Positions 13,325-63,640 are shown, counted from the first letter of the stretch. The stretch is 64,000 nucleotides of DNA from a virus (IMGVR_UViG_3300045988_170943:32001-96000), one strand, 5' to 3'. Numbers and translations: made by a program. The notes: generated by a model from the sequence alone, not told the origin.

Positions 13325-13500
13325 TCATGATTCGAGCGAAGTAAGCGTATGACTATTCCTTGAGATAAACCGTATCTATTGTATTCCCAATAGGTAGGTC
13401 CCTTGTCGGAATTGTCGTGCCGCTGGTTGTCTGAAACCACTCCAGGTGGTCCACCGCAGAAACCCTAGACTCTGCGGGGCACATCCCTTTACTCACCTCC
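13325..13500 (-). ncRNA. Putative omega-RNA (reRNA) of TnpB copy 1: conserved scaffold overlapping the tnpB 3' end, plus a copy-specific 3' segment
   Basis: Nucleotide conservation among the three copies runs through the tnpB C-terminal coding region to about 9 nt past the stop, then diverges. This matches the known IS605 omega-RNA layout. Confidence 0.4.
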
Positions 13501-14925
13501 TTGGAAGGTGCAGCAGGAACGTCAGTTTTTGGTTTGTTCTGTGGCGCCTTTGGTGTGGGCCGGTTCTTCGTGCCAGGATGCTTGAGCGGTTTTACATGGC
13601 ACTTGGAGCGGCGGACACGCTTGGTCTTTGTAGCGTGCCGCTTCCGTGTCTGGCACGCCTTAGCGTGATTCACCTTCTGAGCGATGTTCGCCGCCGCATT
13701 AATGTCCCGATGGTGTGTAACACCACAGGTAGTGCAGTGTGGCTGGGAGTAGTTCTGCATGTCTAGATTCGACTGGCAGGCGTGGCACTTTCTGGACGTA
13801 TAGGCCGCATTGACTTTGAGGACCCTGCCGCCGTCGGCCTCAATCATGTCACGGGTACGTCTGTACACCTCGCCACGGAACCACCTACCGAACTTCATGG
13901 TGTTCTTGATATGGGATAGGTCCTCAAACACCACCAGAGCATTGTCATACTTCCAGGCCGCGTCAGCAACCTCCTGAGCAATGAGGATACTCAGTTCCTT
14001 ACGACGATTCGATAGATGCTCTCTGTGAGAAACCGCCTCCTTGTCCTTGCCTTTTCTCTTCAGGGAAGCGACCTGTCTGGCTCCACGTTTGATCTTGTTG
14101 CTCAGCGACCTCGAACGCTGGCCTAAAAGAGATCTCTCAACGACCTGTTTCTTCTCAGTGTCCCAGACGACGTAAGCGGCCGGATTGGCGACTCCGACGT
14201 CCACACCAATGACGTACCTGGAAGAGAACTCGGGGCGGCCAGGATCCGTCGTGCCATGGAACCCGAACATGACCCTGTTGTTCTTGTCAACCCAGACGTC
14301 TGGTACACCAGGCTCACAGCCCGGCTCTAGTAGTTGAGGTGGCGTCGGGAAGTGCAGTGTCACCCACTGACCCTGGACAACCATGTCAAGAGAAATACGT
14401 TCTGGTGTGACACTGAAGTTCTTGTGGTAGCCCTTGTCTGTAGCGGACAGGGCCAGACGAGGCTGTAGGGCCCTGGGTTTAGAGTCTTTGACGGTCCTTC
14501 TCCACCCAGCCGAGACGTAACCAGTGTAGTTCCCGGAAGCAACTCCTGCTCTGGTGGTCCAGGATCTTAGATTGACAACTACTTGCTCTCTGAACATACG
14601 TTCCAATCTGGAACTACCGCTTCTGAGCCGCTTCTTCACCTCACTGGGGAGAAACAGACCCATTCTCCGACCTGCCTCAGCGGGTTTGTATCTGTCGAAG
14701 TAGGTCACCAGAGCGAGGTTCTGCTCAGTCAACTCCCGTAAGGCATAGTGAGCAGATAACTCTGCATCCTTCCTGATACCGTCCAGGACTTCATCAAGAT
14801 CCAGAGGATCACCACTCTTGCTGAATGCAGCGTACGGCACCCTTGGGTATGTGCGAGACACAACAGTCTTAGACGGCATCCGGTGAGCCTCCTCTCAAAG
14901 AAGTCGTACGTGTGTATCCTAACAC
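13344..14925 (-). mobile_element. IS605-family (IS1341-like, tnpB-only) insertion sequence, copy 1
   Basis: One of three near-identical tnpB units. Ends estimated from where the three copies stop aligning (about 45 nt upstream of start, about 9 nt past stop). Confidence 0.6.
13353..14879 (-). CDS. tnpB: TnpB-like RNA-guided endonuclease (RuvC-like plus zinc finger, OrfB_IS605 type), 508 aa, ATG start
   Basis: RuvC-I IGVDVGVANPAAYVVWD, RuvC-II ALVVFEDLSHIKN, CxxC...CxxC zinc finger (CHACQ ... CTTCG), RuvC-III HHRDINAAANIA. Long basic C-terminal tail. Confidence 0.85.
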   Translation of the reverse strand: MPSKTVVSRTYPRVPYAAFSKSGDPLDLDEVLDGIRKDAELSAHYALRELTEQNLALVTYFDRYKPAEAGRRMGLFLPSEVKKRLRSGSSRLERMFREQVVVNLRSWTTRAGVASGNYTGYVSAGWRRTVKDSKPRALQPRLALSATDKGYHKNFSVTPERISLDMVVQGQWVTLHFPTPPQLLEPGCEPGVPDVWVDKNNRVMFGFHGTTDPGRPEFSSRYVIGVDVGVANPAAYVVWDTEKKQVVERSLLGQRSRSLSNKIKRGARQVASLKRKGKDKEAVSHREHLSNRRKELSILIAQEVADAAWKYDNALVVFEDLSHIKNTMKFGRWFRGEVYRRTRDMIEADGGRVLKVNAAYTSRKCHACQSNLDMQNYSQPHCTTCGVTHHRDINAAANIAQKVNHAKACQTRKRHATKTKRVRRSKCHVKPLKHPGTKNRPTPKAPQNKPKTDVPAAPSKEVSKGMCPAESRVSAVDHLEWFQTTSGTTIPTRDLPIGNTIDTVYLKE

Positions 14926-15166
14926 AGGATCAGTGAAGTATGCCAGTACATACCAAGACAGGGAAACAATGTCAGGCTACAGTAGAACAGCCACAACTCT
15001 CTTAGTGCAGGCGATAACGGCAGGGACCACTGTGGCCCGCCTCACTTTACCCCCATAGTGTGGGCGTTGACTTCCTGGCTGCCCTTGTAGTAGGCTGGTT
15101 CCAGCAGAGCAGCCCTGCATTTGGTAGGGTCACACGAGCAGGAAGGCTAGGGGCGCAAGTGGCTAA

Positions 15167-16103
15167 CAATGATGATGACATGACTCCTGAGGGGTTTATT
15201 CACCGACTCCAGGAAGAGGTCATTTCTCAACGTGACTGGATCGCCTGGGACATGGGGTGCAGCCCGAATGGCTCCCGCTACCTCAGTGTTGGTGAGGGGG
15301 ACCTGGCGACCATTTATGCGGACTGGGGTGAACGCGACAGTGACGAGGATCCCGAGGAGGTGGAGTGGGCTGTGTATAACCGTCACGGGGAGTGCGTGCT
15401 TGAGAAGTACTTCTTGGATGAGGGCACGAGTATGGATGTCTCTGAAGTCGCCAGTGAAATGATTTTCATGGCTCGTGAGCAGAGTGAGTCACTTGACCTG
15501 TGCTGCCGAGTTGAGGACGCTGTGGCTGACGTGGAGGTGCGAACTTTCTCCACCAGTAATGGGCGCATGGTTTTCCTGAAAGACTCCGAGACTCTTGAAG
15601 GGTGCACCATCAGTGCAACGTTCGAGTTCACTGAGTCTGAGGGCGGGCTGATTACTGGCGGGACGTTCTCGTTCAGTGGCGACGGTTTCACTGACATACT
15701 GAACGCCGAGGTGGACGTGACTGAATGGCCAGTTAACAGCCTGGTTGATAGCCTGTTCGTCCCGGTCCTGTCACAGAGGGAGAACTGGATCGGTAGCCTT
15801 TTTGCCCCCTGGAGCCCGCTGGCTCTTCCCCCGGGTTGCAGCAACATTATCGAGTGCTTTGCCTCCCAGGAACAGGTGGACTACTACAGGGACGACTGGA
15901 ACATGCGTTGCGGTGTACGCAGTGTGGGAGACGGGGGTTACGCTGAGATTGAGTACACTCCTAATGGGGTTCAGGTCACTTGCGACAGTGAGGAAGGCGA
16001 GGGGCACGACTTTGTGCTGTTTGACAGTCATCGTGACGCCGCAGAGCATGCCCTAGAGAAGGCCTGGAAGCACTGGGTTGAGAAGAACTCAAAGTCAGAG
16101 TAA
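15167..16103 (+). CDS. hypothetical acidic protein
   Basis: Large ORF. TTGACT-N18-TAGGCT promoter at about 15076-15106. Start chosen at the first ATG after the predicted TSS. Confidence 0.5.
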
Positions 16104-16125
16104 CAAGATAGGGGCGTGATGCTAT

Positions 16126-16626
16126 ATGGGTAGGTTTGCTGTAGTGCTGCCGTTGGCGATCAGTGGCGGCGAGGAGCATTCCGGGGTCAACTATCCTTTT
16201 GTAGTTACTATTCTAGGCATGGTTGCCATCATGGCTTTAGCGATTGTGCTATCGCGTGTGGACCGCTCCCCAGAGTATATCCTTTTAGGGGTAGTGGGTT
16301 GTGCCTTTGTGTTCATTTTTTCTTTTTGCGTCTCCCCTTCAGTGGGATATACGGTATGGACTAGTCACAGCCCCTACAAGATAACAAGCACGTTGACGAA
16401 GGTGGAAGAGAGCAGCGATCGCCCAGGTCAGTCAGATGTGACCCTCAGTGAAGAGGGGAAGGTCAGAGTCAACGAGCGCGTGAGTAACCTTACAAATCTC
16501 GTGGGGAAGGAAGTCGTTCTCAAGTGCGACTACGACAAGATGCCAGAGAAGAAGATCACCACTGAGACCGAGTGTGATCTCAGTGGTTTCGGGACTGCCC
16601 CTAAGCCACCCTCTGTGTCGAACTAG
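16126..16626 (+). CDS. small membrane protein, family F
   Basis: Two TM helices, then a C-terminal domain ending ...LKCDYDKMPEKKIT...GTAPKPPSVSN. Near-identical tail in 40207-40692. Confidence 0.65.
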   Translation: MGRFAVVLPLAISGGEEHSGVNYPFVVTILGMVAIMALAIVLSRVDRSPEYILLGVVGCAFVFIFSFCVSPSVGYTVWTSHSPYKITSTLTKVEESSDRPGQSDVTLSEEGKVRVNERVSNLTNLVGKEVVLKCDYDKMPEKKITTETECDLSGFGTAPKPPSVSN

Positions 16627-16661
16627 AACACCTCTTCACCTATCTTCTGGCAGTGTGTCAT

Positions 16662-16709
16662 GGTTCACACATTCCTGGGTTGCGGCACCTAGATGGCTTG
16701 CCCTATGCT
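16662..16709 (+). promoter_or_regulatory. Shared-type promoter GGTTCAC-N11-TTGCGG-N18-TATGCT
   Basis: Motif match upstream of 16787. Confidence 0.5.
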
Positions 16710-16786
16710 TAGGGGTGTCAACAGGAAGCATCCACCCCGGACGGACTCTAAGAGACCCGTCTACTATGCACCCAAGGAGAGATCTC

Positions 16787-17137
16787 ATGACTAACTTGAC
16801 CCCCGTCTCAGCAAACAACGCCATTGAACTGGCCGTTCGCGTTGGGCGCATCATCTCGGACTGCATGCCTGGGGCGACTCTCACCTACACCAGGGACCTG
16901 GACGCGAAGCCGGGTATGGATGCAGGAGGCGTTATCGCCGACTCAGGCAACTATGTCATCAATGTCGCCATTATGGGGCAGGACGGGGTTCACAATGGGA
17001 TGTTTGAGATCCATTACGGCAGCAAAGAGTTCAAGGTTCAGGGCTTCCTGTTCGATTGGATGACGAATGACATGATTCGTGAGACCATTGTTGACACCAG
17101 TATGGAGGCATTCAAGAAGTACTGCTCCAACAACTAA
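16787..17137 (+). CDS. hypothetical protein, family C
   Basis: SD ccaaggagagatctc before ATG 16787. Paralog of 1631-1954. Confidence 0.6.
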   Translation: MTNLTPVSANNAIELAVRVGRIISDCMPGATLTYTRDLDAKPGMDAGGVIADSGNYVINVAIMGQDGVHNGMFEIHYGSKEFKVQGFLFDWMTNDMIRETIVDTSMEAFKKYCSNN

Positions 17138-17201
17138 GCCACATCATCTTTCTCTTGGGCTTCCTCTCGCTAAGGGGTGGCCCAAGATCATTTTGTGGGC
17201 C

Positions 17202-17249
17202 AGTTCACACAACAGGCGGTTGCTCAGCGTCCCGTCCGTGGTGTATAGT
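17202..17249 (+). promoter_or_regulatory. Shared-type promoter AGTTCAC-N11-TTGCTC-N18-TATAGT
   Basis: Motif match upstream of 17305. Confidence 0.55.
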
Positions 17250-17304
17250 ATTAGCCATCAGGAGGAAAACAACGGGTTACCTCCACTGAACATCGGGAGC
17301 AAAA

Positions 17305-17811
17305 ATGTCCTACCTTGCGGACAACATGATTAAGGTCGCCGGTCGCTACGGCTTCGCTGGCAGCATCCAGGAGGACGACAACGTTGTCACTTTCACCAGT
17401 GACGACAAGAGCCTTCAGATCATCGGCAGGCATGAGATTGAGGTCACCTTGTCTATGACGGTCAACGGGCAACCTTTCAATCTGGAGGACGGCGCTGGTA
17501 ATTTCGCTGAGCACTCTATCGAGATGGCGGTCAGTCGTCTACTGGAGGGCCGCAAGGCCATGGAGGACTGCGTTAACGCCCTGAATGACGCTGGCTGGAA
17601 CGTAGAGGTCGTCAAGACAGACTACTCCAGAGGCTATGTGCGCATGACTAAGGGGAACAAGAAGGCCTATATGCAGCCTCCGTCTGGCAGTAGTGTCACC
17701 ATTAATGGCGATAACCGGAGGACTGCGGCCAAGGATCTGTATAACGTCGGCTTTCTTAGCAGCCACAAGCAGATTCCTGGGTGCAGTGGGGTCTACCCTA
17801 TTGCAAAGTGA
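17305..17811 (+). CDS. hypothetical protein, GW family
   Basis: Closest to 29096-29605 (CVNALNDAGWNVEV vs CVSALEGAGWSVTK; INGDNRRTAAKDLYN vs INGKSRRSAAKILHD). Confidence 0.65.
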   Translation: MSYLADNMIKVAGRYGFAGSIQEDDNVVTFTSDDKSLQIIGRHEIEVTLSMTVNGQPFNLEDGAGNFAEHSIEMAVSRLLEGRKAMEDCVNALNDAGWNVEVVKTDYSRGYVRMTKGNKKAYMQPPSGSSVTINGDNRRTAAKDLYNVGFLSSHKQIPGCSGVYPIAK

Positions 17812-18018
17812 TTGGCCCTCCCACATAATCAGGGGACGCCAATAACCTCGTAAGAAGGGCATGGGCTGCGCTTTCCGTCAGTAGAGGGTGTGGCCCATGC
17901 TGCAAATGAGTATGTTGTTTGCTTGGTCTTGCAGTAGAGGTCGTGCTACAATCGGCTGCAAAGTCCAACAGAGGTTGTAGCGAATCAGCACAACAGGCAA
18001 TAGAAGGAGGCGATTCGG

Positions 18019-18594
18019 ATGAGCGCTCGTGAGATGTTCTCCACGCTGGACACTACTCTGACGATGGCTTCAGGGGTTGAGGCGAGGTCGCAGACAGTTA
18101 CCACGCACAGGTCCACTACAGATATAGACGCTTTACTGCCAACACAGGATCACATCAGCATTGAGGCAATCTGCTACCAGGACGCTGGCGGCGACTCGTG
18201 GCGTTCTATCCTGCTGACAGCCATGTACAAGTATAAGAAGATCCTATCATATTCTCTACTGCCGTCCTCAATGTTCCCTGAGGGCTCTGGTGGCGGAGTG
18301 GCAGACGAAGAGGTTCCTTCCAGTGTTCACAGGTTTATCAGGCAGGCAAGAGTCATCGCCCGGCTACTGCATTATATTCCGGGGGCAAAGTCTGCTGACA
18401 ACACTGTTGAGGTCACGTTCAGTAGCGGCAGACATGAGTTCGTGGAGGTCTCTGAGGACGCGAACAATCCTGACACTGTGCTGGTGAGTGTCTGGCCTCA
18501 GAAGGGGGTTCGTGAGATGGTCGCCGAGTTGCGTGAGCCGTTCAAGGGTCTCATTGTCCGCAACTATGATGACGGGTTCTCAGTAGTTCTGTAG
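18019..18594 (+). CDS. hypothetical protein
   Basis: Strong SD aaggagg before ATG, 191 aa. Confidence 0.55.
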   Translation: MSAREMFSTLDTTLTMASGVEARSQTVTTHRSTTDIDALLPTQDHISIEAICYQDAGGDSWRSILLTAMYKYKKILSYSLLPSSMFPEGSGGGVADEEVPSSVHRFIRQARVIARLLHYIPGAKSADNTVEVTFSSGRHEFVEVSEDANNPDTVLVSVWPQKGVREMVAELREPFKGLIVRNYDDGFSVVL

Positions 18595-18882
18595 GCAGAA
18601 ACTCGGGATAGAGGGACACCATTCAGTGCCGAAAATCCCTATCCACTAGAACCTCAAAAGATAAGGAAAACGAGAGGAAACGGCTGTGGAGAACATCACC
18701 ACTTACACCATCTACATCGAAACTGCTCTCCCCTTCAACGGGATGAAGACCCTGGAGAAGCGGATCAAGAGGTTCCTCAAAGAGGTTGGGCTTGATTTCC
18801 GCACCGATTTCGGTAACTCTCAGGACACTGGCAACTACAATGCTTTATTCGAGTAGAAGAGAAAGCTCCAGAAGACGAGCAG

Positions 18883-19188
18883 ATGGCGAAGTGGCTTATC
18901 AGTGGTGAGTCAGTCGTTCACAAGACGGTTATTCCTTTCTTCGAAGGCAATGAAGGTGTCATCAACTGCGAGGATAACTGCGTCCAGTTCGCTGCATCAC
19001 AGATCATTGATTACGACAGCACCGAGTTCTTCTCTCGCTCCCAGACGACACGGTACAAGCGGCACAAGGATACAGGAGAATTGAGGCAGGAGCGCACGGT
19101 CGTCAATGACACAAGTGTTAGATGGTATTCCACCGCTGTGCCCGCCTTGCTTTCACGTATATCTAGTGGTGTTTCTGGGGGCGCCTAA
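18883..19188 (+). CDS. hypothetical protein
   Basis: 101 aa ORF; weaker translation signals. Confidence 0.35.
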   Translation: MAKWLISGESVVHKTVIPFFEGNEGVINCEDNCVQFAASQIIDYDSTEFFSRSQTTRYKRHKDTGELRQERTVVNDTSVRWYSTAVPALLSRISSGVSGGA

Positions 19189-19258
19189 ACGCCCTCATAA
19201 GGGAGTCCTGTGACCTATGGTTGTTGCCCCTCCCCCGAAGAATGTGCGCGTGTGCCCC

Positions 19259-19307
19259 AGTTCACATAGCACTGGGGTTGCGGTCACCGGCCCTAGTGCT
19301 CTATGCT
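19259..19307 (+). promoter_or_regulatory. Shared-type promoter AGTTCAC-N12-TTGCGG-N18-TATGCT
   Basis: Motif match upstream of 19364. Confidence 0.5.
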
Positions 19308-19363
19308 GGTGCCACAAGCCAAGGACAACAGGTCTGAGGCGGCAGCCGGAAGGAAACCTCACC

Positions 19364-19945
19364 ATGAACGTCACCCCGATCACTGACCTGTCCGTCCCCA
19401 CCACTAAGGTTGTTGTCAAGGCCGTTCGTGACGCTTTCGGCGAGAAGGCCGGACAGATCACTGGTGTCCAGTGGGTTGATAGCGATGGTCGTGAGGCAGC
19501 CAAGGTGTCCACCCATGTCGGAGACACTGAGGTTGAGGTGCAAGTCGTTGAGGTCCGTAACACTGGGTTCACTTTCACCATCACCACCAAGGATAGTCAG
19601 GGTGAGGTCCTTTCTGACTTTCTTGGTCACCATGTTAAGGTCGATGAGATGAGGAAGATCATCTCAAAGACCTATGACACCGCGTGGCGAGTCACCCTCA
19701 TGCGTGGCCTCCTGAAGGATCGCGGATACGATGTTTCTCCTATCAGCGATGCCAACATGTTCACCGTCTACGACCAGGGCCACCATAACAGCGCTGAGGT
19801 TGATGTCCAGATCCATAAGGGGATCATTGACGTCGGCTCTGAGAACGGCCGCAAGTTCGCCCAGAAGGTTGCTCTGGCTGGAGCGCTCAGCGGAACAGTC
19901 ATCCTTGATGAGAACTATGGGTCCATTGTTCGGGATACTCTCTGA
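19364..19945 (+). CDS. hypothetical protein
   Basis: SD ggaaggaaacc before ATG 19364. Promoter and terminator flank it. Confidence 0.55.
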   Translation: MNVTPITDLSVPTTKVVVKAVRDAFGEKAGQITGVQWVDSDGREAAKVSTHVGDTEVEVQVVEVRNTGFTFTITTKDSQGEVLSDFLGHHVKVDEMRKIISKTYDTAWRVTLMRGLLKDRGYDVSPISDANMFTVYDQGHHNSAEVDVQIHKGIIDVGSENGRKFAQKVALAGALSGTVILDENYGSIVRDTL

Positions 19946-19964
19946 GACCTGAGAACAGAACATA

Positions 19965-20015: not shown

Positions 20016-20100
20016 ACTTGCCTCCGCCTTCCTGAAGTAGAGCCAGTCGAGCAAGGTAAACTTTCCTGTAGGAAGTGCTAAAAGTCGAGAAGAGGTCAAG

Positions 20101-40692: not shown

Positions 40693-40760
40693 GGACACCA
40701 CCACTGCAACCATGATCCGTGCACGTGCTTGAAAAGTAGAACCTGAGGAGGAATAGGAGT

Positions 40761-41774
40761 ATGAGCGACACGCGAGAGGTTACAGAGTCCATGGCCCCGA
40801 ATGAGGTCGTGGCATTCCTAAACGATGGAACCCAATCAGGTTCTATCCCTGCCGCACTGGATGACATTCTTGACGACATCCGTGACGAGCAACTATCCTT
40901 GCATGGTTTTGATGAGGGCGAGACACGTGTGGTGAACGCCGTCAATGACTGGTTCGATGACGACAAGATCGCGTGCCTGGTGTGCGAAACAAAGAATGAG
41001 CAAGTCGTCTACACGCTCTCTGAGGTTCAGGACGTCTCAGGGTCCTTTCTGGTGTGGTGGTGGAAGAAGTATGACGCCAGCGCCTACACTGAGTTGATGG
41101 GCGCAATCAAACAGGGGCGAAAGTTCCAGTTCCTCCTACATGAGGGGCAAGGCAACAGATTCCTCATCAATGAAACGATCCAGGAGGTCTGGGAAGTTGC
41201 AAGAAACATCCCCAGAAAGCACTCACTGAAGTTCTTCAAGAGGGTCGTGAAAGAGGAGGCATACTTCTCTAACTCATGGGAGACTGTTGACGACTACCAT
41301 TCCCGGCACTGGCGGCAGTGGCTCTCCAGGGGCGGTTTCGTCAGGTTCAAACCCAAGGGCATTGACATGTTTGTTTGCGTCAGTGACGACCGCAACAAGG
41401 GAGCGCTTTCTTTCTGGCAGGAACTCATCGAAGATGGGGACACGCTGGGAGTGCTCAGAGATGTGGATAAGAGTGGGGTCATGTCCTCCCCCAGCAAGTT
41501 CCCATACCGTGACCTGTGCAGCAAGGTCAAGGGGTACCGTGAAGACCTCTCGGACGTCAAAATTGCCAATAACGACCCCAACCTCTCTGAGAACGGGCGA
41601 GTGAACATTGTTTACATGTTCGTCACCGTGAACAGGTACAATGAGCCATCCGTGTACATGCTGTCAGACCACTTCAAATCTTATGACTGGAGGGTATTTG
41701 ACGACATCGAAGTCATCTCCCCATACCTGCACAAGGTGGGGTGGACTAACAACACCCAAAACAACGAAGAGTGA
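40761..41774 (+). CDS. hypothetical protein, family A
   Basis: Paralog of 3375-4382; tandem with 41800-42849. Confidence 0.7.
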   Translation: MSDTREVTESMAPNEVVAFLNDGTQSGSIPAALDDILDDIRDEQLSLHGFDEGETRVVNAVNDWFDDDKIACLVCETKNEQVVYTLSEVQDVSGSFLVWWWKKYDASAYTELMGAIKQGRKFQFLLHEGQGNRFLINETIQEVWEVARNIPRKHSLKFFKRVVKEEAYFSNSWETVDDYHSRHWRQWLSRGGFVRFKPKGIDMFVCVSDDRNKGALSFWQELIEDGDTLGVLRDVDKSGVMSSPSKFPYRDLCSKVKGYREDLSDVKIANNDPNLSENGRVNIVYMFVTVNRYNEPSVYMLSDHFKSYDWRVFDDIEVISPYLHKVGWTNNTQNNEE

Positions 41775-41799
41775 AATAAAGGACAGATTAGGATCTAGC

Positions 41800-42849
41800 A
41801 TGAATAACGCAAAAGAGATTACCGACGACAGCACCCCGAACGAGGTCGTAGCATACCTGAACAACAAGATACAATCAGGCGAGTCACCTTTCACAACGCA
41901 TGATGCTCTTACGGACATTCAAGATGGAGAACTGACCCTGCCAAGATTTAATACTTCGGCTACCATGATTGCCAACATAGTGAACAACTGGCTTGACGGC
42001 AGTGGGGTTGCGCATATTGTGTGTGACGGGTTGACTAAAAACCTAATCGTCTACACTCTTTCAGAGGTTCAGGAAGTATCCGGCTCCTCTTTGGTGTGGT
42101 GGTGGAAGGAGATTGACTCTACCGCCTATATCCGCCTTATATCACCTATTAGAAAAGGGTACGAACTCCAGTTCCTCCTGCATGAGGCGCGCGACAACCA
42201 CTTCATGCTCACTGAGACCGTCCAGAAGGTTTGGGACGCCGCCAGAAGCCTCCCTATAGAGCACTCATTGAGGTTCTGCAAGAAGATTCTCGGAGAACAC
42301 CTGAGAGTGTGGGACACTGCACTTGGCACTAAGCCTGGCTCATGGGAGAACGTTCACGAGTCGCGTTCTCCATCGTGGGAAAGGTGGATTGCAAATGGAG
42401 GAAAAATTGAGTTTGTCACCAACTATGATGTTACAGTTGTTCAAGTAACACCAGAGCAGAACGAGGGACTGATCAAGTACTGGCAGAACCTCATAGAAAA
42501 CGAGAACGACCCAACCAAGGTACTGGATGTGCTTCAGGATGTGGATTATAGTGGAGTCATGTCATCCCCCAGCAGGTTCCCATACCGTGACCTGTACAGC
42601 AAGATCAATGGGTATCGTGAAGACCTCTCAAACATCCAGTATGCCCGCACCGACCCGAACCTATCTGACTACGGGTGGTTGAACATTGTAGACGTGTTCG
42701 TGACAGTAGACGAAAACAGCAAGCCGTTCGTGTACATGCTTTCAAACAACCCAGCCGACTACGGGTGGACACTCTGGGAGAACATCTCATTCATATCCCC
42801 ATACCTGCACAAGGCGGGTTGGAAGATAGACGACAAGCCACAACAGTAG
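41800..42849 (+). CDS. hypothetical protein, family A (tandem duplicate)
   Basis: Start refined to MNNAKEI. Same conserved blocks as 40761-41774. Confidence 0.7.
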   Translation: MNNAKEITDDSTPNEVVAYLNNKIQSGESPFTTHDALTDIQDGELTLPRFNTSATMIANIVNNWLDGSGVAHIVCDGLTKNLIVYTLSEVQEVSGSSLVWWWKEIDSTAYIRLISPIRKGYELQFLLHEARDNHFMLTETVQKVWDAARSLPIEHSLRFCKKILGEHLRVWDTALGTKPGSWENVHESRSPSWERWIANGGKIEFVTNYDVTVVQVTPEQNEGLIKYWQNLIENENDPTKVLDVLQDVDYSGVMSSPSRFPYRDLYSKINGYREDLSNIQYARTDPNLSDYGWLNIVDVFVTVDENSKPFVYMLSNNPADYGWTLWENISFISPYLHKAGWKIDDKPQQ

Positions 42850-46217: not shown

Positions 46218-46254
46218 CCGCTGTCAGAGTTCACGCAAAACATGACTGTGGCCC

Positions 46255-52209: not shown

Positions 52210-52214
52210 GTGTC

Positions 52215-53795
52215 TATTTATACCGTCAACCAGTCAAGTTCTTGAGAGGAGGCTCAACAGAAGTGCCTAGAACCATTGTGTCGCGCACGTATCCTCGTAC
52301 ACCGTATGCTGCGTTCAGCAAGACTGGTGAGCCCTTAGATCTTGATGTGGTACTGGCTGGTATCAGGAAGGATGCTGAACTGGTTGTCCACTATGCCCTA
52401 CAAGAGATGACTGAGCATAATCTCGCTCTGGTGACCTATTTTGACAGGTTCAAGCCTGCTGAGGCAGGGCGGAGAATGGGTCTGTTTCTCCCTAGCGAGG
52501 TGAAGAAGCGGTTCAAAAGTGGGGCCTCACGACTGGAGAAGATGTTCCAGGAGCAGGCCGTGACTGCCTTACGTTCCTGGGCCACCAGATCTGGGGTTGT
52601 CTCTGGGAACTACACTGGCTACGTCTCCGCTGGCTGGAAGAGAACAGTCGGGGACTCCAGGTCAAGGGCCCTACAGCCTCGGCTCGCCCTGTCTGCTACA
52701 GATAAGCAGTACAGGCGTATGAGTGTTACACCAGAACGTATTTCTCTTGACATGGTTGTTCAGGGCCAGTGGGTGACACTGCATTTTCCTGTTCCTCCAC
52801 AACTTTTAGAGCAGGGCTGTGAGCCAGGTGTTCCAGACATCTGGGTTGACAGTCAAGGTCGAGTGATGTTTGGTCTCCATGGCATGACAGATCCTGGCAG
52901 ACCGGAGTTCTCACCCAGGTACGTCATTGGCGTGGATGTGGGGGTCACTAACCCGGCCGCCTATGTTGTCTGGGACACTGAGAAGAGGGAAATTGTCGAG
53001 AAGTCTCTGCTTGATCAGAGGGCGCGGTCTCTGCATAACAAAATCAAACGCGGGGTTAGGCAAGTGTCCTCTCTACAGAGGAAGAACCGCCCCGAGGAGG
53101 CCGTGCCCCATAGGGCGCATCTATCGAATCGGCGTAAGGAACTGAGTATCCTTGTGGCTCAGGAGGTCGCGGACGCTGCCTGGAGGTATGGTAACGCCCT
53201 GGTGGTGTTTGAGGATCTGAGCCATATCAGGAACACCATGAGGTTTGGACGTTGGTTCCGTGGCGAGGTGCATAGAAGAACACGGGACATGGTTGAGGCT
53301 GACGGTGGACGAGTGATGAAGGTGAACGCGGCGTACACCTCGAAGAGGTGTCATGTCTGTCAGTCTGATCTGGACATGAGCGACTACAGTAGCCCTGTGT
53401 GTCACTCATGCAACATCACTCATCACCGGGACGTCAACGCGGCGGCGAATATTGCCCAGCGGGCCAACGTCAAGAAGGCTTGTCAGACCAGGATGCGGCA
53501 CACCACGAAGACGAAGCGTGTCCGCCGCTCCAAGTGCCGGATAAAACCACTGAAATATCCTGGTACGAAGAACAAACCAACACCCAAGGCGCCCCAGAAC
53601 CGACCTAAGACTCATGCTCACTCGTCTCTTCCAAAGATGGAGGTGAGTAAGGGGATGTGCCCCGCAGAGTCTAGGGTTTCTGCGGTGGACCACAGGGAGT
53701 GGTTTCAGACAACCAGCGGCACGACAGTTCTAAAGGAGAACCTATCTATTGGGAATACAATAGATGTGGTTTATCCTAAGGAATAGTCATACTCT
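52215..53795 (+). mobile_element. IS605-family (IS1341-like, tnpB-only) insertion sequence, copy 2
   Basis: Aligns to copies 1 and 3 from about 45 nt upstream of the start to about 9 nt past the stop. Confidence 0.6.
52263..53786 (+). CDS. tnpB: TnpB-like RNA-guided endonuclease, 507 aa, probable GTG start (the track ORF from 52164 is an upstream over-extension)
   Basis: Same RuvC/zinc-finger motifs as copy 1. SD gagaggagg, then GTG at 52263, aligns with the ATG of copy 1. Confidence 0.85.
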   Translation: MPRTIVSRTYPRTPYAAFSKTGEPLDLDVVLAGIRKDAELVVHYALQEMTEHNLALVTYFDRFKPAEAGRRMGLFLPSEVKKRFKSGASRLEKMFQEQAVTALRSWATRSGVVSGNYTGYVSAGWKRTVGDSRSRALQPRLALSATDKQYRRMSVTPERISLDMVVQGQWVTLHFPVPPQLLEQGCEPGVPDIWVDSQGRVMFGLHGMTDPGRPEFSPRYVIGVDVGVTNPAAYVVWDTEKREIVEKSLLDQRARSLHNKIKRGVRQVSSLQRKNRPEEAVPHRAHLSNRRKELSILVAQEVADAAWRYGNALVVFEDLSHIRNTMRFGRWFRGEVHRRTRDMVEADGGRVMKVNAAYTSKRCHVCQSDLDMSDYSSPVCHSCNITHHRDVNAAANIAQRANVKKACQTRMRHTTKTKRVRRSKCRIKPLKYPGTKNKPTPKAPQNRPKTHAHSSLPKMEVSKGMCPAESRVSAVDHREWFQTTSGTTVLKENLSIGNTIDVVYPKE

Positions 53796-53815
53796 GCTTA
53801 CTACTCTAATCGGCC
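53640..53815 (+). ncRNA. Putative omega-RNA of TnpB copy 2
   Basis: Conserved segment ...ccccgcagagtctagggtttctgcggtggaccac...gtggtttcagacaaccagcggcacgac... shared with the other copies; divergence begins about 9 nt after the stop. Confidence 0.4.
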
Positions 53816-57881: not shown

Positions 57882-58019
57882 TAGGACACAACTCCCCCAC
57901 TCAACCCAGCAGGCAGGTGTGGCGTATGTCACCAGCACTGCTGCACTCGCGTGGGCTCTAGTTGTGTATAGTTAGAGACGGCGAAAGCAACCAAAACGAT
58001 CCTGAAGGAGAACCAAAAC

Positions 58020-58616
58020 ATGGGTATGCGCTCTGTCTTCGCAGCCATCAGCATCAACGACAACGGGGAGAAGGTACTGGACTATGCGACAGTTCAGTGG
58101 GCTTCCTACATCCCCCGTACTCTCGCCTATGGGTTCAGCCGTCTGGACGATGAGGGCAAGAACTCGCTGATCGATGTGTTCGTTAGGGGGTGCCAGCAGT
58201 TTGACCATATGTCTTGTATCGAACGATATGTTGTCTATGGCTGGTGCTGGAAGTACGTCCACATTATGGATGGATTCAGCGTCAAGATTGGCAAAAATAA
58301 AGGCCGCGATGTTATTGTGGGCGTTGACTCGGGAATTCGAGACGATACTCCTCCGCAGCAGCACAAGGTGGACAGCCTGGATGCGGCGAAAGAGTTCATT
58401 GCGGATCGCGGCCACAATCAGGACGGTGTTTCTGCCCTCTACGATCCTGAGAAGCAGACGTTCCACTTCATCTCCAATGACACCTGCCACCTCTATAAGG
58501 CTATATACAACGAGGACAGCAAGGTTGTCATGAGGGTTCCTAAGGGTGAGTGGGTGTCGTACTCTGTAGAGGAACTGGCCAGTCTTGGTGAGGACTTCGA
58601 CATGAGCGACGACTGA
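58020..58616 (+). CDS. hypothetical protein
   Basis: SD ctgaaggagaacc before ATG. Confidence 0.55.
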   Translation: MGMRSVFAAISINDNGEKVLDYATVQWASYIPRTLAYGFSRLDDEGKNSLIDVFVRGCQQFDHMSCIERYVVYGWCWKYVHIMDGFSVKIGKNKGRDVIVGVDSGIRDDTPPQQHKVDSLDAAKEFIADRGHNQDGVSALYDPEKQTFHFISNDTCHLYKAIYNEDSKVVMRVPKGEWVSYSVEELASLGEDFDMSDD

Positions 58617-59025
58617 ACCTCTCCGAGCACTTTTACTTGCGCTGCCACCACCCGCCCTATTCCAGAGGCGAGCAGTGGCAGCGCTTCATTCCACCCTGCT
58701 CTGACAGTAGCGGAGTAGGACTTGCTGCATGACCAGTTGGCGGATCCAACAATGTTCAGGATAAAGGTAGAACAGCCTTGTAACGTACAGCAAGCGTGTG
58801 TCTTCTGTTGACTTCAGCGGTTGGGTGTAGTATGATTGGGAGTTGACCAACCAATAGGATACAGGGAGCAGGAGTGAGGCATGGTTGCACTGATTCTAGA
58901 TGAGTTCTGGGTAGCGGCAAAATCAAAACAGGGGGAGGCAGAAATGTCGAGCCTGCAAGAGTATCTGGACTCTTGCAGACCCACAATTAAACTGAAGCAC
59001 ACCACCAAGAGGGAGGGTAATAGGA

Positions 59026-59535
59026 ATGGCTGAGAGCAGCGAGAGTGAAGTTAACCATGAGCCCGCAGAACCGGAGTTGAAGGATCCTCTGTATAGTAGT
59101 GCGGACGTGTGGCTTGGCGCGTTGAGCAATGCGTCACTTATGTGCTTTGTTGCCTTTATTGTATCCATCATCTTCAATGATCCTATGTTGCTTCTAGGGG
59201 CCGCTTCGGGTGCTATAGCAGGTGGTATTGCTTCTGTGTTCCTGGCTCCTGAAGGCTGTAGGCGTACAGGAGTACGTGTCAGGAGATTACTTTGTAGAGA
59301 TAGGCAGGCGGTCGCTCTTGTACGCACGAAGGATCAACTAGACGCGCCCGTTGACAGGTCTGACGTCCAGGATTCTTCTACTACTTCATCTCATGGCGAT
59401 CCTGACAGTGTTGATGATGTCATTGTGGAACGGCCCGACCTGGATTTGTTTGAGTTTTACGGCCTGAGTGGCGAGCACACTCAAGATACAAGCACTGGTA
59501 ATGAGAACGTCAAACTTGTGAGAGAAGCGCACTAG
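59026..59535 (+). CDS. membrane protein
   Basis: SD agagggagggtaatagga. Two or three TM helices in the N-terminal half. Confidence 0.5.
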   Translation: MAESSESEVNHEPAEPELKDPLYSSADVWLGALSNASLMCFVAFIVSIIFNDPMLLLGAASGAIAGGIASVFLAPEGCRRTGVRVRRLLCRDRQAVALVRTKDQLDAPVDRSDVQDSSTTSSHGDPDSVDDVIVERPDLDLFEFYGLSGEHTQDTSTGNENVKLVREAH

Positions 59536-59548
59536 GAGAGGTAATAGA

Positions 59549-60058
59549 ATGAAGGCTTGTGATTATGGTGTAGAACCGGATTTCATTGTTCGCACTCAGG
59601 AGGAGTGGAGCAACCTCAGCAATAGCATTGCACTGACACGCCGACGGAGGCGCCCTATTGTCGTTATTGACTCACCTGCCATTTATAACATCATCATCGA
59701 CGGGAAGTCGTCCCTGTATGAGGTACACGTGGTCGGTGAGACCCGCCTATGCAGTGCCCTGAACTTCACGATCCACACAGTGAAGGATGATGCGATCATT
59801 GAACTGGCAGATGTGGGCAGAATTGGGAAAATGTGTGGCAGATCCAGGGTCTTCGAGATGAGATACACCACTGTCATGGCGATGACCGGTGAGGCGAAGG
59901 TGAATGATGCTTTCCGGTCTGAGGTTCTGGTCGCCGACTATGATCTCATCCTCAATGGTGGTCCGAGCGAGTTGTTTTCTAGGACCATGAACACCAACTT
60001 CTTCAAGGAGATAGCATCCTACTTGGGTGGCGAAGGAGAGAACCAGGTCGGCTTCTGA
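59549..60058 (+). CDS. hypothetical protein
   Basis: SD ctaggagaggtaataga; 13 nt after the previous stop (likely co-transcribed pair). Confidence 0.5.
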   Translation: MKACDYGVEPDFIVRTQEEWSNLSNSIALTRRRRRPIVVIDSPAIYNIIIDGKSSLYEVHVVGETRLCSALNFTIHTVKDDAIIELADVGRIGKMCGRSRVFEMRYTTVMAMTGEAKVNDAFRSEVLVADYDLILNGGPSELFSRTMNTNFFKEIASYLGGEGENQVGF

Positions 60059-60412
60059 TCGCGTAGAAGAGAGTGGAGCGGGGAATTTATTTCTCTCTCT
60101 TCTCTTATCCCCTCAAGTCACACCCCACCGGTATTGACTCCTACCCTCACCTTAGTGCGCCATCATTGACGGGGCTCTGACTACCCCCAGTGCGCAGTAA
60201 TCTGCTTGCTTTAGTAGGGACACTGTTCCAAGTGTCAGCAACGAGCGCCTGTACTGTCGCTCGCAGTCACCTACATCAAGGGTGCTCTTGCTCGCACTGG
60301 TGATGTTGTGTTCGGGCTCACACCGGATGACACACGCAAGGTCACACCCCTTGTAGTAGAATGAGCCCTAAAGTAAGAACCGAATCTGATCACACAGGCA
60401 GGAGTAGGGTAA

Positions 60413-61108
60413 GTGGACATGAATCCGCGTAAGATCGGTGCCATCATTCTTGTTGTGCTCGCGCTCGCGTTCTCGTGCGTGCGGATCGCGGGAGACAACA
60501 AGCCCACAGGAGAGACCACTAAGGATGCAGCCGACTCACAGGCAGTAGTCGAGACCATCAACAACGCCAAGGAGATCCGGGCAACCAAGTCCTGGTTCAC
60601 CTGGGGCGACGAGTGGACAGTCTACGCCGACGACAAAGAGGTGGGGAAAGTCAGGGGTAAGACCTGGCCTGTCCTAGGGGACACCTACTCCCTCTACACG
60701 ACCAATGGGAACCTTGTGGGGTCAGAGTCGGAGAACCCACAGATCATCTCCCACAAGGCCGGAATCTACGACTGGAACAACCAGGAGACTGGACACCTGG
60801 ATGCGGAGATTCTGACATTCCTGGCAAAGGTCCAAGTCTACCACGGTGACACCAAGGTAGGGGTGTCTCAGCAGAAGTTCGGCCTCACCTTCAACACTGA
60901 CATCAAGGATAACAATGATGTTACCGGATGGAAGATGAGTCGCGCGTTCTTCTCCTTCACATCCGACCTCACCATTACGAAGAAGACCGACACCGAGGTC
61001 ACTGGCATGGACGCACTGTGGGTGTCACTCATGATGAGTGAAATCCATGACGCAAAGTCCAGCAGCGACAGCGGGAGCAGCAGCCGAAACCGCTCATCAC
61101 GCCACTAA
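60413..61108 (+). CDS. secreted or membrane-anchored protein (N-terminal signal/anchor, Ser-rich C-terminal tail)
   Basis: Hydrophobic N-terminus KIGAIILVVLALAFSC; SD caggagtagggtaag. Confidence 0.5.
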   Translation: MDMNPRKIGAIILVVLALAFSCVRIAGDNKPTGETTKDAADSQAVVETINNAKEIRATKSWFTWGDEWTVYADDKEVGKVRGKTWPVLGDTYSLYTTNGNLVGSESENPQIISHKAGIYDWNNQETGHLDAEILTFLAKVQVYHGDTKVGVSQQKFGLTFNTDIKDNNDVTGWKMSRAFFSFTSDLTITKKTDTEVTGMDALWVSLMMSEIHDAKSSSDSGSSSRNRSSRH

Positions 61109-61131
61109 CCCTACAGCAATGGAGAATCAGC

Positions 61132-61416
61132 ATGAACCAGTATATTCAGCAGATAGATGATTTCAATAAGTGGTGGACTAGGGCAGAGTTACAAGTTACG
61201 GCTCTATCTGCCCTGTCCGCTCACAATGATGCAACAGCCATTCAGGACCAGATGAGCCAGGTTGTTGACCTGCTGAAGCAGATTGCTGAGTCGCAAAAAG
61301 TGCAGACCGCGATCCTTGAAGGCATCGCAAAAGACAAGGGCATTAAGAACACCTGGGATGCGCACAGGGAGACAGATCACACGTTAAATGCTGCCACAGA
61401 ACGTAGCATTGAGTGA
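61132..61416 (+). CDS. hypothetical helical protein
   Basis: 94 aa ORF; lower-GC segment. Confidence 0.45.
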   Translation: MNQYIQQIDDFNKWWTRAELQVTALSALSAHNDATAIQDQMSQVVDLLKQIAESQKVQTAILEGIAKDKGIKNTWDAHRETDHTLNAATERSIE

Positions 61417-61442
61417 GTGACGAGTAACTGGAAAGGTCACTA

Positions 61443-62093
61443 ATGACACGTGTAAACGTCCACAACACTACCGACTGGGATCGTGTTGACTGGAGTAACC
61501 CAGATCTGACTGAAGTGGTTGTTGACATTGATGACCCATATACGGTTATCGATGGCACCGGTAGATGTGACACGAACATTGGTATCGCGGTTGTTGTTGA
61601 TTCCAGGATTGGGGTGGTGAAGAACGTGGGCCATCTTGTTGTCAAACCGCACCCCATTGTCAGATTTCATAAAGATAATCTACGCATTAAAAACTGTACT
61701 GCCGTAAACGTTAATGATGGGGTGATTGTCACTAAAGTTACTGGTTCGAATCTTTTCATGGATGGCTCATCCCTGGTGCTTGTCGCAGAGAATTGCGATG
61801 TCATGTCCATGTCCGGTGATTCTCAAATCAACAAGGCCATTGATTCTGTGATTGACTCCATGATCGATAAGTCAACTATCTGTTTCGCAGATAAGAACAC
61901 CTGTATCAAGTTGATGGAAGATATGTCACAGGTGGATCGTCTTGAAGGGCACATCCTCATGCTTGACGGGTGCGCTTGTGTCGAGAAGATGACGAATGCA
62001 GCAATTGTTGAGACAGCCAGGTGCCGTACCATCGTTCGTAACGTAGAAGACGGTTCCAAGGTGGAGGTAGCGTATGACTATTCCTTAGAATGA
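61443..62093 (+). CDS. hypothetical protein (repetitive, Val/Asp/Asn-rich); 3' end overlaps the TnpB copy 3 stop region
   Basis: 216 aa ORF in a lower-GC segment; convergent 16 nt overlap with tnpB copy 3. Confidence 0.45.
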   Translation: MTRVNVHNTTDWDRVDWSNPDLTEVVVDIDDPYTVIDGTGRCDTNIGIAVVVDSRIGVVKNVGHLVVKPHPIVRFHKDNLRIKNCTAVNVNDGVIVTKVTGSNLFMDGSSLVLVAENCDVMSMSGDSQINKAIDSVIDSMIDKSTICFADKNTCIKLMEDMSQVDRLEGHILMLDGCACVEKMTNAAIVETARCRTIVRNVEDGSKVEVAYDYSLE

Positions 62094-62230
62094 ACCCCAC
62101 CCACAGTATTAGCGGATAGGTTCGCCTTTGGAATTGTCGTGCCGCTGGTTGTCTGAAACCACACATTGTGGTCCACCGCAGAAACCCTAGTGTCTGCGGG
62201 GCACATCCCCTTACTCACCTCCCTAGAAGG
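62050..62230 (-). ncRNA. Putative omega-RNA of TnpB copy 3
   Basis: Same conserved 3' scaffold as the other copies; copy-specific sequence after TCATACGCT. Confidence 0.35.
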
Positions 62231-63640
62231 TGTAACAGAGGGGTGAATCTTTGGCCTGTTCTGTGGGGCCTTAGGTGTTGGTTTGTTCTTCGTACCAGGA
62301 TGCTTGAGCGGCTTTGCATGGCACTTGGATCTTCTGATGCGCTTCGTCTTCGTGGCGTGCCGTCTCCTGGTCTGGCAGGCCTTGGCATGGTTGGCTCGCT
62401 GAGCAATATTCGCCGCAGCATTCAGGTCACGGTGATGGGTGATGTCGCATGAATGGCATACGGGATTACTGTAGTCGCTCATGTCCAGGGTAGCCTGACA
62501 CACATGACACCTTTTCGAGGTGAATGCCGCGTTCACTCTGAGGACCCTACCTCCGTCGGACTCAACCATGTCCCGAGTACGCCTGTGGACCTCGCCACGA
62601 AACCAGCGGCCGAACTTCATGGTGTTCTTGATGTGAGACAAGTCCTCAAAGGAGACGATGGCATTGTCATAACGCCAGGCTGCGTCCGCGATCTCCTGAG
62701 CAATGAGGATACTCAGTTCCTTACGACGATTCGACAAGTGAGCCCTGTGAGAAACCGCTTCCTCATCCTTGCCTTTTCTCTTCAAGGATGTTACTTGTAC
62801 CTGCCCGCGCTTGATCTTGTTGCTCAGTGATCTTGCTCTTTGATCGAGTAGAGATTGCTCAACAATCTCCTTATTCTTGGTGTCCCATACCACATAGGCG
62901 GCAGGGTTGGTAACTCCAACATCTACACCAATGATATAGCGCTCAGAGAACTTTGGTCGGCCAGGATCGGTTTTCCCATGAAAACCAAACATCACACGGT
63001 TGTTCTTGTCAACCCAGATGTCTGGGACACCAGGTTCACAACCATCCTCCAACAACTGCGGAGGCACCGGAAAATACAGTACCACCCACTGACCTTGAAC
63101 AATCACCTTCAACTCAATACGATCCGACTTAACAGTCATCTCTCTATATTGCCTATCGGCAGCAGAAAGAGATAATCTAGGTTGCAGAGATGATGGTTTT
63201 GAGTCCCTAACTGTCCTTTTCCAGCCGGTAGAGACATAACCACTATAGTTTTGGTTAACGGCCCCTGCTCTGGTAGCCCAGGACCTTAGATTGGTGACTA
63301 CTTGCTCTCTGAACATACGTTCAAATCTGGAACTACCGCTCCTGAACCGCTCCTTCACCTCAACTGGAAGTTTCAGGCCCATCATATATCCTGCACCTGA
63401 TGGTTTAAGTCTGTCGAAGTAGGTCACCAGCGCAAGGTTCTGCTCGGTCATCTCCCGCAAAGCATAGTGGGCGACCAGTTCAGCATCCGCTCTGATGCCG
63501 TCCAGGACTTCCTTGAGGTTTAGAGGATCGCCACTCTTGCTGAACGCAGCATACGGTGTGCGAGGGTACGTGCGAGACACAGCGCCTCTAGGCACTTCTG
63601 GTGAACCTCCCCTCAAGGACTTGACCGGCTAACGGTGTGT
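62069..63640 (-). mobile_element. IS605-family (IS1341-like, tnpB-only) insertion sequence, copy 3
   Basis: Aligns to copies 1 and 2. Confidence 0.6.
62078..63595 (-). CDS. tnpB: TnpB-like RNA-guided endonuclease, ~505 aa, probable GTG start
   Basis: Same motifs. SD gaggggagg then GTG (plus-strand cac at about 63593-63595) aligns with the copy 1 ATG. Confidence 0.85.
   Translation of the reverse strand: MPRGAVSRTYPRTPYAAFSKSGDPLNLKEVLDGIRADAELVAHYALREMTEQNLALVTYFDRLKPSGAGYMMGLKLPVEVKERFRSGSSRFERMFREQVVTNLRSWATRAGAVNQNYSGYVSTGWKRTVRDSKPSSLQPRLSLSAADRQYREMTVKSDRIELKVIVQGQWVVLYFPVPPQLLEDGCEPGVPDIWVDKNNRVMFGFHGKTDPGRPKFSERYIIGVDVGVTNPAAYVVWDTKNKEIVEQSLLDQRARSLSNKIKRGQVQVTSLKRKGKDEEAVSHRAHLSNRRKELSILIAQEIADAAWRYDNAIVSFEDLSHIKNTMKFGRWFRGEVHRRTRDMVESDGGRVLRVNAAFTSKRCHVCQATLDMSDYSNPVCHSCDITHHRDLNAAANIAQRANHAKACQTRRRHATKTKRIRRSKCHAKPLKHPGTKNKPTPKAPQNRPKIHPSVTPSREVSKGMCPADTRVSAVDHNVWFQTTSGTTIPKANLSANTVGGVHSKE

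Follow-up and report, generated by a model that had tools for sequence, protein, structure and literature searches.

We analysed a 64,000-nt stretch of viral DNA (IMGVR_UViG_3300045988_170943:32001-96000, hereafter the window) that comes from a ~415 kb phage-like genome of the human mouth (oral microbiome). The window carries three copies of a transposon-like unit whose single gene encodes a large TnpB-type protein, and an earlier note, made from the sequence alone, had described them as tnpB-only insertion sequences with an omega-RNA-like 3' module. The copies were compared with related loci and genomes, which bear L-numbers below. Each element extends from NCT-nTTCTACTGTAG... to ...TAGTCATAC and measures 1.58-1.65 kb. 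The parts of the three copies, including their open reading frames (ORFs), are as follows.

13347-14991, minus strand: copy 1, whole element, 1645 nt, with left end GCTGTTCTACTGTAG... and right end ...TAGTCATAC, delimited by the family alignment and clean empty alleles.
13353-14879, minus strand: copy 1 tnpB ORF, 508 aa, ATG start, with D227/E319/D392 and CxxC..CxxC.
13347-13484, minus strand: copy 1 putative omega-RNA scaffold, 138 nt, overlapping the last ~45 tnpB codons.
13344-13346, minus strand: copy 1 GCT after the right end; the same GCT opens the left end at 14989-14991.
13324-13343, minus strand: copy 1 probable 20-nt guide TACTTCGCTCGAATCATGAT, placed after TCATAC-NCT by analogy with ISXfa1 (PMC10711439).
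14880-14991, minus strand: copy 1 left end and 5' leader; contains a GGAGG Shine-Dalgarno sequence and, as TGTTAGGAT, a degenerate form of the extended -10 box whose family consensus is TGTTATAAT.
52213-53792, plus strand: copy 2, whole element, 1580 nt, left end truncated.
52263-53786, plus strand: copy 2 tnpB ORF, 507 aa, GTG start.
53655-53792, plus strand: copy 2 putative omega-RNA scaffold, from the RNA-model match and folding.
53793-53815, plus strand: copy 2 TCT trinucleotide and probable guide GCTTACTACTCTAATCGGCC, compared with the related genome L050.
62072-63715, minus strand: copy 3, whole element, 1644 nt; the related genome L049 lacks it.
62078-63595, minus strand: copy 3 tnpB ORF, 505 aa, GTG start.
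62072-62206, minus strand: copy 3 putative omega-RNA scaffold, from the RNA-model match and folding.
62049-62071, minus strand: copy 3 GCT trinucleotide and probable guide ACCTCCACCTTGGAACCGTC, compared with L049.

The three ORFs have the positions, strands and lengths given in the earlier note, and its reading of the start codons, ATG in copy 1 and GTG with a Shine-Dalgarno sequence in copies 2 and 3, is supported by the conserved GGAGG and by the family alignment; a mechanical ORF list would extend copies 2 and 3 upstream to GTG 52164 and TTG 63616, respectively. Nucleotide homology among the copies runs from upstream of the start codon to ...AAGGAATAG TCATAC. The abrupt end of conservation described ~9 nt past the stop is thus real, with the correction that the next three positions, N-C-T, are also conserved. 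Three strings of 15-27 nt from the 3' region each occur three times in the 64 kb against 0.00-0.08 occurrences expected, and their recurrence is therefore not due to chance. A small deletion reported in the left end of copy 1 was likewise found (7 nt, near the Shine-Dalgarno sequence), and a far larger loss in copy 2 had been overlooked: here TCTATT directly abuts TATACCG, with the loss of ~95 nt that included the promoter-like -10 box. None of the three window copies has the consensus -10 box, and a simple sigma-70 promoter scan around copy 1 returned nothing. Two left ends elsewhere in the family are rearranged. One copy in L026 (4982-5125, minus strand) contains a 13-nt tandem duplication, TACTGTAGTCCAG, and in L004 (2863-2880) an inverted right-end remnant, GTATGACTATTCCTTAG, stands immediately before the left end of a copy, which suggests nested or abutting insertions.

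The three proteins are 76-79% identical in pairwise comparison and contain the listed motifs IGVDVGVxNPAAYVVWD (RuvC-I), VVFEDLSHI (RuvC-II; VSFEDLSHI in copy 3) and HHRDxNAAANIAQ (RuvC-III), together with a CxxC...CxxC zinc finger formed by C365, C368, C382 and C385. Their proposed identity as TnpB was borne out by profile and fold comparisons. Pfam PF07282 (Cas12f1-like TNB) matched at E ~1e-14 (49-53 bits, above its gathering score of 26.3), and OrfB_IS605 matched below threshold. In a search of PDB sequences, D227, E319, D392 and the zinc ligands aligned with those of AsCas12f (E 3e-8) and ISDra2 TnpB (E 1e-3). An AlphaFold2 model built from 43 sequences (predicted local distance difference test score, 77) was confident for residues 4-417 and disordered for residues 418-508. 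Foldseek matched this model over ~430-460 columns to AsCas12f (2e-15), ISDra2 TnpB (1e-12), the IS607 TnpB of ISFba1 (6e-9) and Fanzor2 (1e-8). The modelled fold indicates that the window proteins are TnpBs with the full WED-REC-WED-RuvC-TNB architecture and an intact D-E-D triad, and from the same matches the N-terminal 220 residues are predicted to form an ordinary WED/REC lobe, only ~30 aa longer than that of ISDra2.

An exhaustive profile-free search returned 72 cluster representatives at E <1e-30, almost all of 490-545 aa and 33-42% identical. The large size of the window proteins, rightly remarked on before, is therefore the norm for a distinct clade; the extra length amounts to only ~30 residues N-terminal of RuvC-III and ~70 in the C-terminal tail, so that the extended N-terminal region described earlier is modest. 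The triad and the zinc ligands are common to clade members, as is a basic motif in the tail, LK[H/Y]PG(RDR)TKxxPTPK, and the catalytic residues and four cysteines are invariant in a 35-member clade alignment. The RNA model described below does not match the distant clade members in L054 to L057, which we therefore take to have different RNAs. L054 and L055 represent a different virus-like genome with a distant clade member; at 12.4-13.8 kb, this genome additionally has a canonical 426-aa TnpB in one sample and a 205-aa ORF in its place in another.

To follow selection along the gene, we calculated the ratio of nonsynonymous to synonymous substitution rates (dN/dS) among the three window copies. 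It was 0.12-0.16 for residues 1-220, 0.03-0.07 for residues 221-402 and 0.11-0.18 for residues 403-457, with dS saturated (1.1-4.6) across residues 1-457, and rose to 0.7-1.1 in the last ~50 codons, where dS was 0.16-0.30. Codon-position entropy in 25 intact copies told the same story: as far as about residue 455, values were 0.9-1.4 at third positions and 0.1-0.6 at the first two, and beyond that point the periodicity disappeared. The reading frame was intact in 25 of the 25 full-length copies examined. These substitution patterns show that TnpB has long been under strong purifying selection. The single basic tail of ~110 aa proposed earlier is better read as two parts. Residues ~403-457 are genuine, strongly selected protein, which is conserved, basic, predicted to be disordered and common to the 500-545 aa clade, and the last ~50 codons are constrained as RNA or nucleic acid, not as protein.

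The 3' end has the features of a structured RNA. An alignment of 36 distinct 3' modules gave a consensus of seven helices with 31 pairs, and 99.2% of pairs were formed in the 36 sequences, compared with 35-47% in controls with slid partners. A covariance model built from these modules found exactly three matches in the window and 100 in unrelated loci. Across 96 distinct sequences, 97.9% of pairs were formed, a value that leans towards structure because that alignment was fitted to the model, and 16 pairs had compensatory changes on both sides. Two divergent matches retained helices 1, 2, 3 and 5 through compensatory changes. Copy 1 matched the model at 13347-13499 with 161 bits and had a minimum free energy of -47.3 kcal/mol (z -3.4); the values were 175 bits and -55.2 kcal/mol (z -5.4) for copy 2 and 177 bits and -52.7 kcal/mol (z -4.2) for copy 3, and when folded singly, all three window copies adopt one common two-domain shape. 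The 5' edge of the module can be placed from the variant locus L037/L039, where the sequence upstream of AUGUGCCCC is unrelated. A search of Rfam with the 3' module at E up to 10 yielded nothing meaningful, RAGATH-18 included. A pseudoknot between a loop and the 3' side (UAGGG with UCCUA) was considered and dropped, as the partner was neither conserved nor covarying. Covariation thus supports ~138 nt at the 3' end as a structured, omega-RNA-like module followed by flank-derived sequence, which upholds the general layout proposed in the earlier note; its placement of the guide directly after TCATAC is not supported, as discussed below.

These data bear on the idea that the copies are remnants of old insertions in the course of decay and that their 3' conservation reflects slower drift. 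Copy 2 has lost ~95 nt of its left end with the promoter box, no window copy has the consensus -10, and at 58759-58780 a lost copy has left a 10-nt footprint, all of which would suit decay. Against it stand dN/dS values of 0.03-0.18 with saturated dS, intact frames throughout the full-length copies, invariant catalytic residues across the clade and compensatory changes in the RNA helices. We regard this explanation as highly improbable; it is refuted for the family as a whole, in keeping with the earlier view that the copies are not relics, and a single copy, especially copy 2, could be transcriptionally silent.

We then defined the ends of the family, using 171 copies at 71 distinct sites for the right end and 45 sites with both ends for the left. 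After TCATAC, the first position was variable (T 42, G 22, C 6, A 1), the second was C in 70/71 sites and the third T in 71/71, and the sequence beyond was random; the flank or guide sequences differed at all 71 sites. The left end reads K-C-T-n-T-T-C-T-A-C-T-G-T-A-G; the base just before it was G in 43/45 sites and the one before that A/T in 41/45, and the flank beyond these two was not conserved. In 32 of 45 sites the two junctions had the same N, compared with ~19 expected, both C/C cases included. No conserved hairpin was found in the left end, whose consensus fold was -3.2 kcal/mol.

Among the 93 other ORFs of the window there is no Y1 transposase, resolvase or other transposase, as the description of the units as tnpB-only had implied, and no Y1 transposase adjoins tnpB at the relatives' loci inspected. 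In L062, a 207-aa protein with a MerR helix-turn-helix and a Resolvase domain (E 2e-19) is encoded at 9816-10439 and overlaps the start of a ~517-aa TnpB of the clade. This locus was found through a weak RNA-model match; its TnpB right end, ...GTGTAGTCATAC, has the same terminus as the main family, of which the contig additionally carries a copy. Since the window has no recombinase and a clade relative of the same lineage has TnpA, the window copies are best understood as tnpA-less derivatives. IS607 elements insert by recombination between matching short motifs, and the base after their right end is fixed and forms part of the RNA scaffold (PMC10711439). The serine-recombinase neighbour, the NCT at both junctions and the lack of a left-end hairpin together identify the family, on comparative grounds, as IS607-type. 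The usual IS607 core motif is GG (PMC13565253), and the NCT clade differs in this respect. Because NCT is conserved, and by analogy with ISXfa1 (PMC10711439), the guide probably starts after NCT and not directly after TCATAC, with W-G-N-C-T as the probable target-adjacent motif (TAM) and core.

The ISDra2/IS605-like layout first suggested for these elements fails on the same evidence. Under that explanation they would be nonautonomous IS200/IS605-type elements (ISDra2- or IS1341-like), moved as single strands by a Y1 HUH transposase, with a left TAM of 4-5 nt and a guide right after the right end. The tnpB-only organisation, IS200_TnpB model matches of 20-35 bits, the presence of ISDra2 TnpB among the fold matches and a covarying hairpin in the right end would fit. 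Yet there is no Y1 transposase in the window or adjoining relatives, the recombinase beside the clade member is a serine recombinase, the left end has no conserved hairpin and the left flank conserves only two nucleotides (W-G). Moreover, NCT occurs at both junctions and singly in empty sites, a pattern that peel-and-paste does not give. We consider an IS200/IS605 origin very unlikely.

Empty alleles were sought with queries made of the left flank, one NCT and the right flank, aligned to other genomes. Unbroken alignments were obtained at 19 sites, which identifies discrete insertions with a single trinucleotide in the empty allele. For copy 1, L099 has an intact empty allele, GTG|GCT|TACTTCGCTCG / GTG|GCT|TACTTCGCTCGAATCATGG, and L179 a mutated one, GTA|GTC|TACTTC. 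The counterpart of the copy 2 site in L050 is CAG|TCC|GCTTACTACTCTGAT, within a 247-aa ORF, and that of the copy 3 site in L049 is GAG|GCC|ACCTCCACCTTGGAACC. All three window copies are lacking from the nearest related genome, IMGVR_UViG_3300008363_000089, where copy 1 is cleanly absent. Conversely, the window has sites that are occupied elsewhere.

40731-40751, minus strand: vacant site, CAG/GTT/CTAC, split as CAG|GTT|CTAC; the element is present here in L094.
46223-46240, minus strand: vacant site; the element is present here in L127.
58759-58780, minus strand: footprint consisting of the first 10 nt of the left end, GCTGTTCTAC; a full element is here in L125, which suggests that the element was lost from the window.

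Comparison of 32 occupied-empty allele pairs showed a difference at the core C in 41% of pairs and at the core T in 31%, compared with 14.6% in the surrounding 80 nt. The CT core was altered in 19 of the 32 pairs and intact in 13, and this excess is suggestive only, as the alleles are not phylogenetically independent. The first three cases had raised the idea that all empty alleles are TAM-mutated, which the 13/32 pairs with intact CT ruled out. Over the 12 nt on the guide side, occupied and empty alleles differed by 0-16% per position, much less than over the 12 nt on the left side (6-28%). Beside copy 3, a 216-aa ORF (61443-62093, plus strand) runs into the right end of the element and takes its last seven codons and stop from it; the homologous ORF in L049 runs much longer, and copy 3 has thus truncated a host gene.

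The age of the copies was judged from 127 copies with a body of at least 1 kb. Sixty-one pairs were at least 95% identical; 59 of these shared their right flank and the remaining 2 were artefacts of a locus cut at its end. Pairs at different sites were 68-90% identical (median, 74.6%), and no near-identical copies at different sites were found among the 127. Given this and the saturated dS, the window copies are old paralogs, contrary to the earlier suggestion of recently diverged and probably mobile units. Copies at the same site had bodies as low as 77-91% identical between flanks that were both 95-100% identical. Mosaics of this kind were seen in L112 versus L155, L118 versus L133, L002 versus L123 and L008 versus L032. 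L112 and L155 are identical save for a ~600-nt tract at ~20% divergence; a paralog from a different site matches this tract better (90.7%) than the ortholog does, which points to gene conversion among paralogs. A comparison of L005 with L015 revealed a flank swap between two inverted copies (L015 6402-8044, minus strand, and 9891-11527, plus strand), that is, an inversion; the inverted 1.85 kb segment encodes a 451-aa ORF and a Dam-type methylase. Genomes carry at least 5-6 copies.

We think it likely that each locus derives from an IS607-family element, has no transposase of its own and encodes TnpB and an omega-RNA. According to our model, the tnpB mRNA or a 3' transcript would be processed into an omega-RNA whose scaffold ends at TCATAC(NCT) and whose guide of ~16-20 nt is the adjacent flank. 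The TnpB-RNA complex would cut DNA where that flank directly follows W-G-N-C-T, which is the uninterrupted (empty) allele, and repair from an occupied genome copy would restore the element after its excision or spread it by homing between coinfecting genomes. Originally, a serine recombinase would have inserted the element by crossover at a short core of matching sequence, TnpA being provided in trans, and ectopic recombination among the many paralogs would yield the mosaic copies and inversions. In a search for guide targets, the matches were the copies' own flanks and homologous empty alleles only; a match of the copy 1 guide with three mismatches in L051 to L053 was taken as chance because it had no flank homology.

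Several observations weigh against this model. The match to NCBIfam guided_TnpB (58-65 bits) is below the curated cutoff of 100, and those to NCBIfam TnpB, Cas12f2 and IS607_TnpB are partial (residues ~220-402) and also below their curated cutoffs. The junction N matches in 71% of sites, not 100%, the core differs from the GG typical of IS607 (PMC13565253), and CT, NC or all three bases are candidates for the crossover register. The guide start, guide length and TAM are all inferred. In the nearest related genome, two ORFs totalling 1.5 kb stand in place of copy 2 and ~170 nt of a host ORF in place of copy 3, so that neither is a clean insertion. Finally, no recent transposition is detectable among the 127 copies.

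A more specific proposal, which we hold only tentatively, is that these transposase-less TnpB/omega-RNA units act as RNA-guided homing gene drives between coinfecting genomes of this huge, oral, phage-like kind. A unit would cut the uninterrupted allele (W-G-N-C-T plus guide match) in a rival genome, and recombination would copy the unit in, sometimes dragging in or deleting nearby DNA; empty alleles that survive would be those made resistant by a mutation in the core or TAM. Homing fits with the excess of CT core changes in empty alleles (19/32 pairs), with the replacement, and not just interruption, of host DNA by copies 2 and 3, and with strong selection that persists without a linked transposase or detectable transposition. 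The conserved basic tail could be an adaptation to such a lifestyle.

The same selection might instead mean that the phage has domesticated the copies, which would no longer be selfish and would serve, for example, in RNA-guided exclusion of related competitor phages or as regulators. Orthologous positions fixed across genomes without recent transposition, the copy number, the conserved extra C-terminal tail and the absence of the family from 185,579 bacterial and archaeal species genomes would all agree with this. However, the guides are whatever flanks each site and differ at 71/71 sites, both transposon ends and the core motif are kept, presence/absence polymorphism is clean at 19 sites, and the catalytic triad is intact, unlike in TldR-type regulators. 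Domestication therefore seems unlikely to us, and it overlaps with our preferred explanation, since a nuclease that excludes competitors by cutting their empty alleles does, in molecular terms, just what a homing one does.

Compared with known systems, the elements are most instructively set beside IS607 (ISXfa1; ISFba1, PDB 8IAZ). Shared features are the type of RNA-guided RuvC/zinc-ribbon nuclease, a guide RNA at the 3' end of the gene, a serine-recombinase TnpA partner (beside the clade member), a short identical motif at both junctions and fixed bases past the right end; terminal inverted repeats were not noticed. The window clade differs in its length (505-545 aa versus ~390 aa), its conserved basic disordered tail LK[H/Y]PG..TK..PTPK, its NCT core after WG in place of GG with AGGAG/GAGGG TAMs (PMC13565253), an RNA that matches no Rfam family, RAGATH-18 included, and window copies without tnpA. 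Sequence identity between known TnpBs and the window proteins is only 25-32%. ISDra2 TnpB/omega-RNA (IS200/IS605; PDB 8H1J, 8EXA, 8BF8) has the same fold and D-E-D triad (DRDxN-type RuvC-III), an omega-RNA overlapping the 3' end of tnpB and a guide from the flank, whereas it has a 408-aa TnpB, a Y1 transposase, end hairpins, a 5-nt TAM (TTGAT) and no shared junction motif. Cas12f (AsCas12f, PDB 8J12/8DZJ) is the best PDB match in sequence and fold and has the same domain order, but the window elements lack a CRISPR array and would take their guide from the transposon flank. Fanzor2 of giant viruses (PDB 9B0L) is likewise an IS607-derived TnpB relative, multicopy in large viral genomes and with a basic terminal extension. 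Unlike it, the window elements have bacterial-type expression signals (a GGAGG Shine-Dalgarno sequence and a TGnTATAAT box), and unlike Fanzor they have D-V-G in RuvC-I, not DPG, and the canonical FEDLS glutamate, not an alternative one, with a weaker fold match (1e-8). In proposed behaviour, the elements resemble the free-standing homing endonuclease genes of T-even phages (Seg, Mob), nuclease genes at fixed intergenic or intragenic sites that are present or absent between related phages and whose neighbouring DNA is replaced in a manner resembling co-conversion. The resemblance is in behaviour only, as target recognition in the window elements would use an RNA guide and a short motif, not protein.

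The window has a GC content of ~52%, no tRNA, no Rfam family at gathering threshold in a scan of its whole length, and no tandem repeats or CRISPR array in its 64 kb. Of the 93 other ORFs, only that at 65-1126 (minus strand) exceeded the curated cutoff of a Pfam family, with a CAAX/Rce1-like membrane protease domain (E 1e-14); the remaining 92 had no family at that cutoff. The same TnpB protein occurs on contigs of 398-424 kb and relatives on contigs of up to 539 kb, with genes for DNA polymerase III alpha with an intein, a Dam-type methylase, NrdI and Ser/Thr kinases as neighbours. The DNA polymerase III alpha of this genome lineage is bacterial-type; in L015 (1-310), its gene has a weak match to an intein-splicing domain. 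One source assembly is a human oral metagenome (PMC8153819), and several IMG/VR contigs derive from HMP-numbered samples. The host genome was considered as an 'Inocle' and this was ruled out, as Inocles have 24-32% GC (PMC12340149). GenBank phages gave no nucleotide match to 24 kb of the window, and known phage and plasmid relatives of the window TnpB were partial matches at 25-32% identity. GTDB species genomes contained no relative of the window TnpB in a peptide-pattern search, and the right-end 25-mer had no match in 185,579 bacterial and archaeal species genomes of that database. For the 139-aa neighbour of copy 1, no relatives were found in IMG/VR. Apart from the three TnpB copies, the only large repeats in the window belong to one paralogous ORF family whose function is unknown (3375-4382, 40761-41774 and 41641-42849, plus strand; two in tandem), with 61-86% nucleotide identity over blocks of 42-228 nt. 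A 59-nt inverted repeat (1223-1281 and 10046-10104; 78% complementary, 8.8 kb apart) is unrelated to the TnpB elements.

These elements are not a new mechanism class; they are a distinctive branch of a known system. They belong to a distinct IS607-type TnpB clade that is multicopy in the ~400-540 kb phage-like genomes sampled, with distant relatives in other virus-like contigs, and that is marked by proteins of 500-545 aa with a basic disordered tail, its own putative omega-RNA absent from Rfam and a CT-type, not GG-type, junction. A size of 505 aa makes the protein unattractive as a compact editor. With ends, scaffold, probable guide start and candidate TAM defined, a new TnpB/omega-RNA pair becomes directly testable. 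The population data (71 sites, 19 with empty alleles) bear on how TnpB genes persist without a transposase, and both the mosaic copies and the excess of empty alleles in which the core is mutated could be tested as signatures of homing and resistance.

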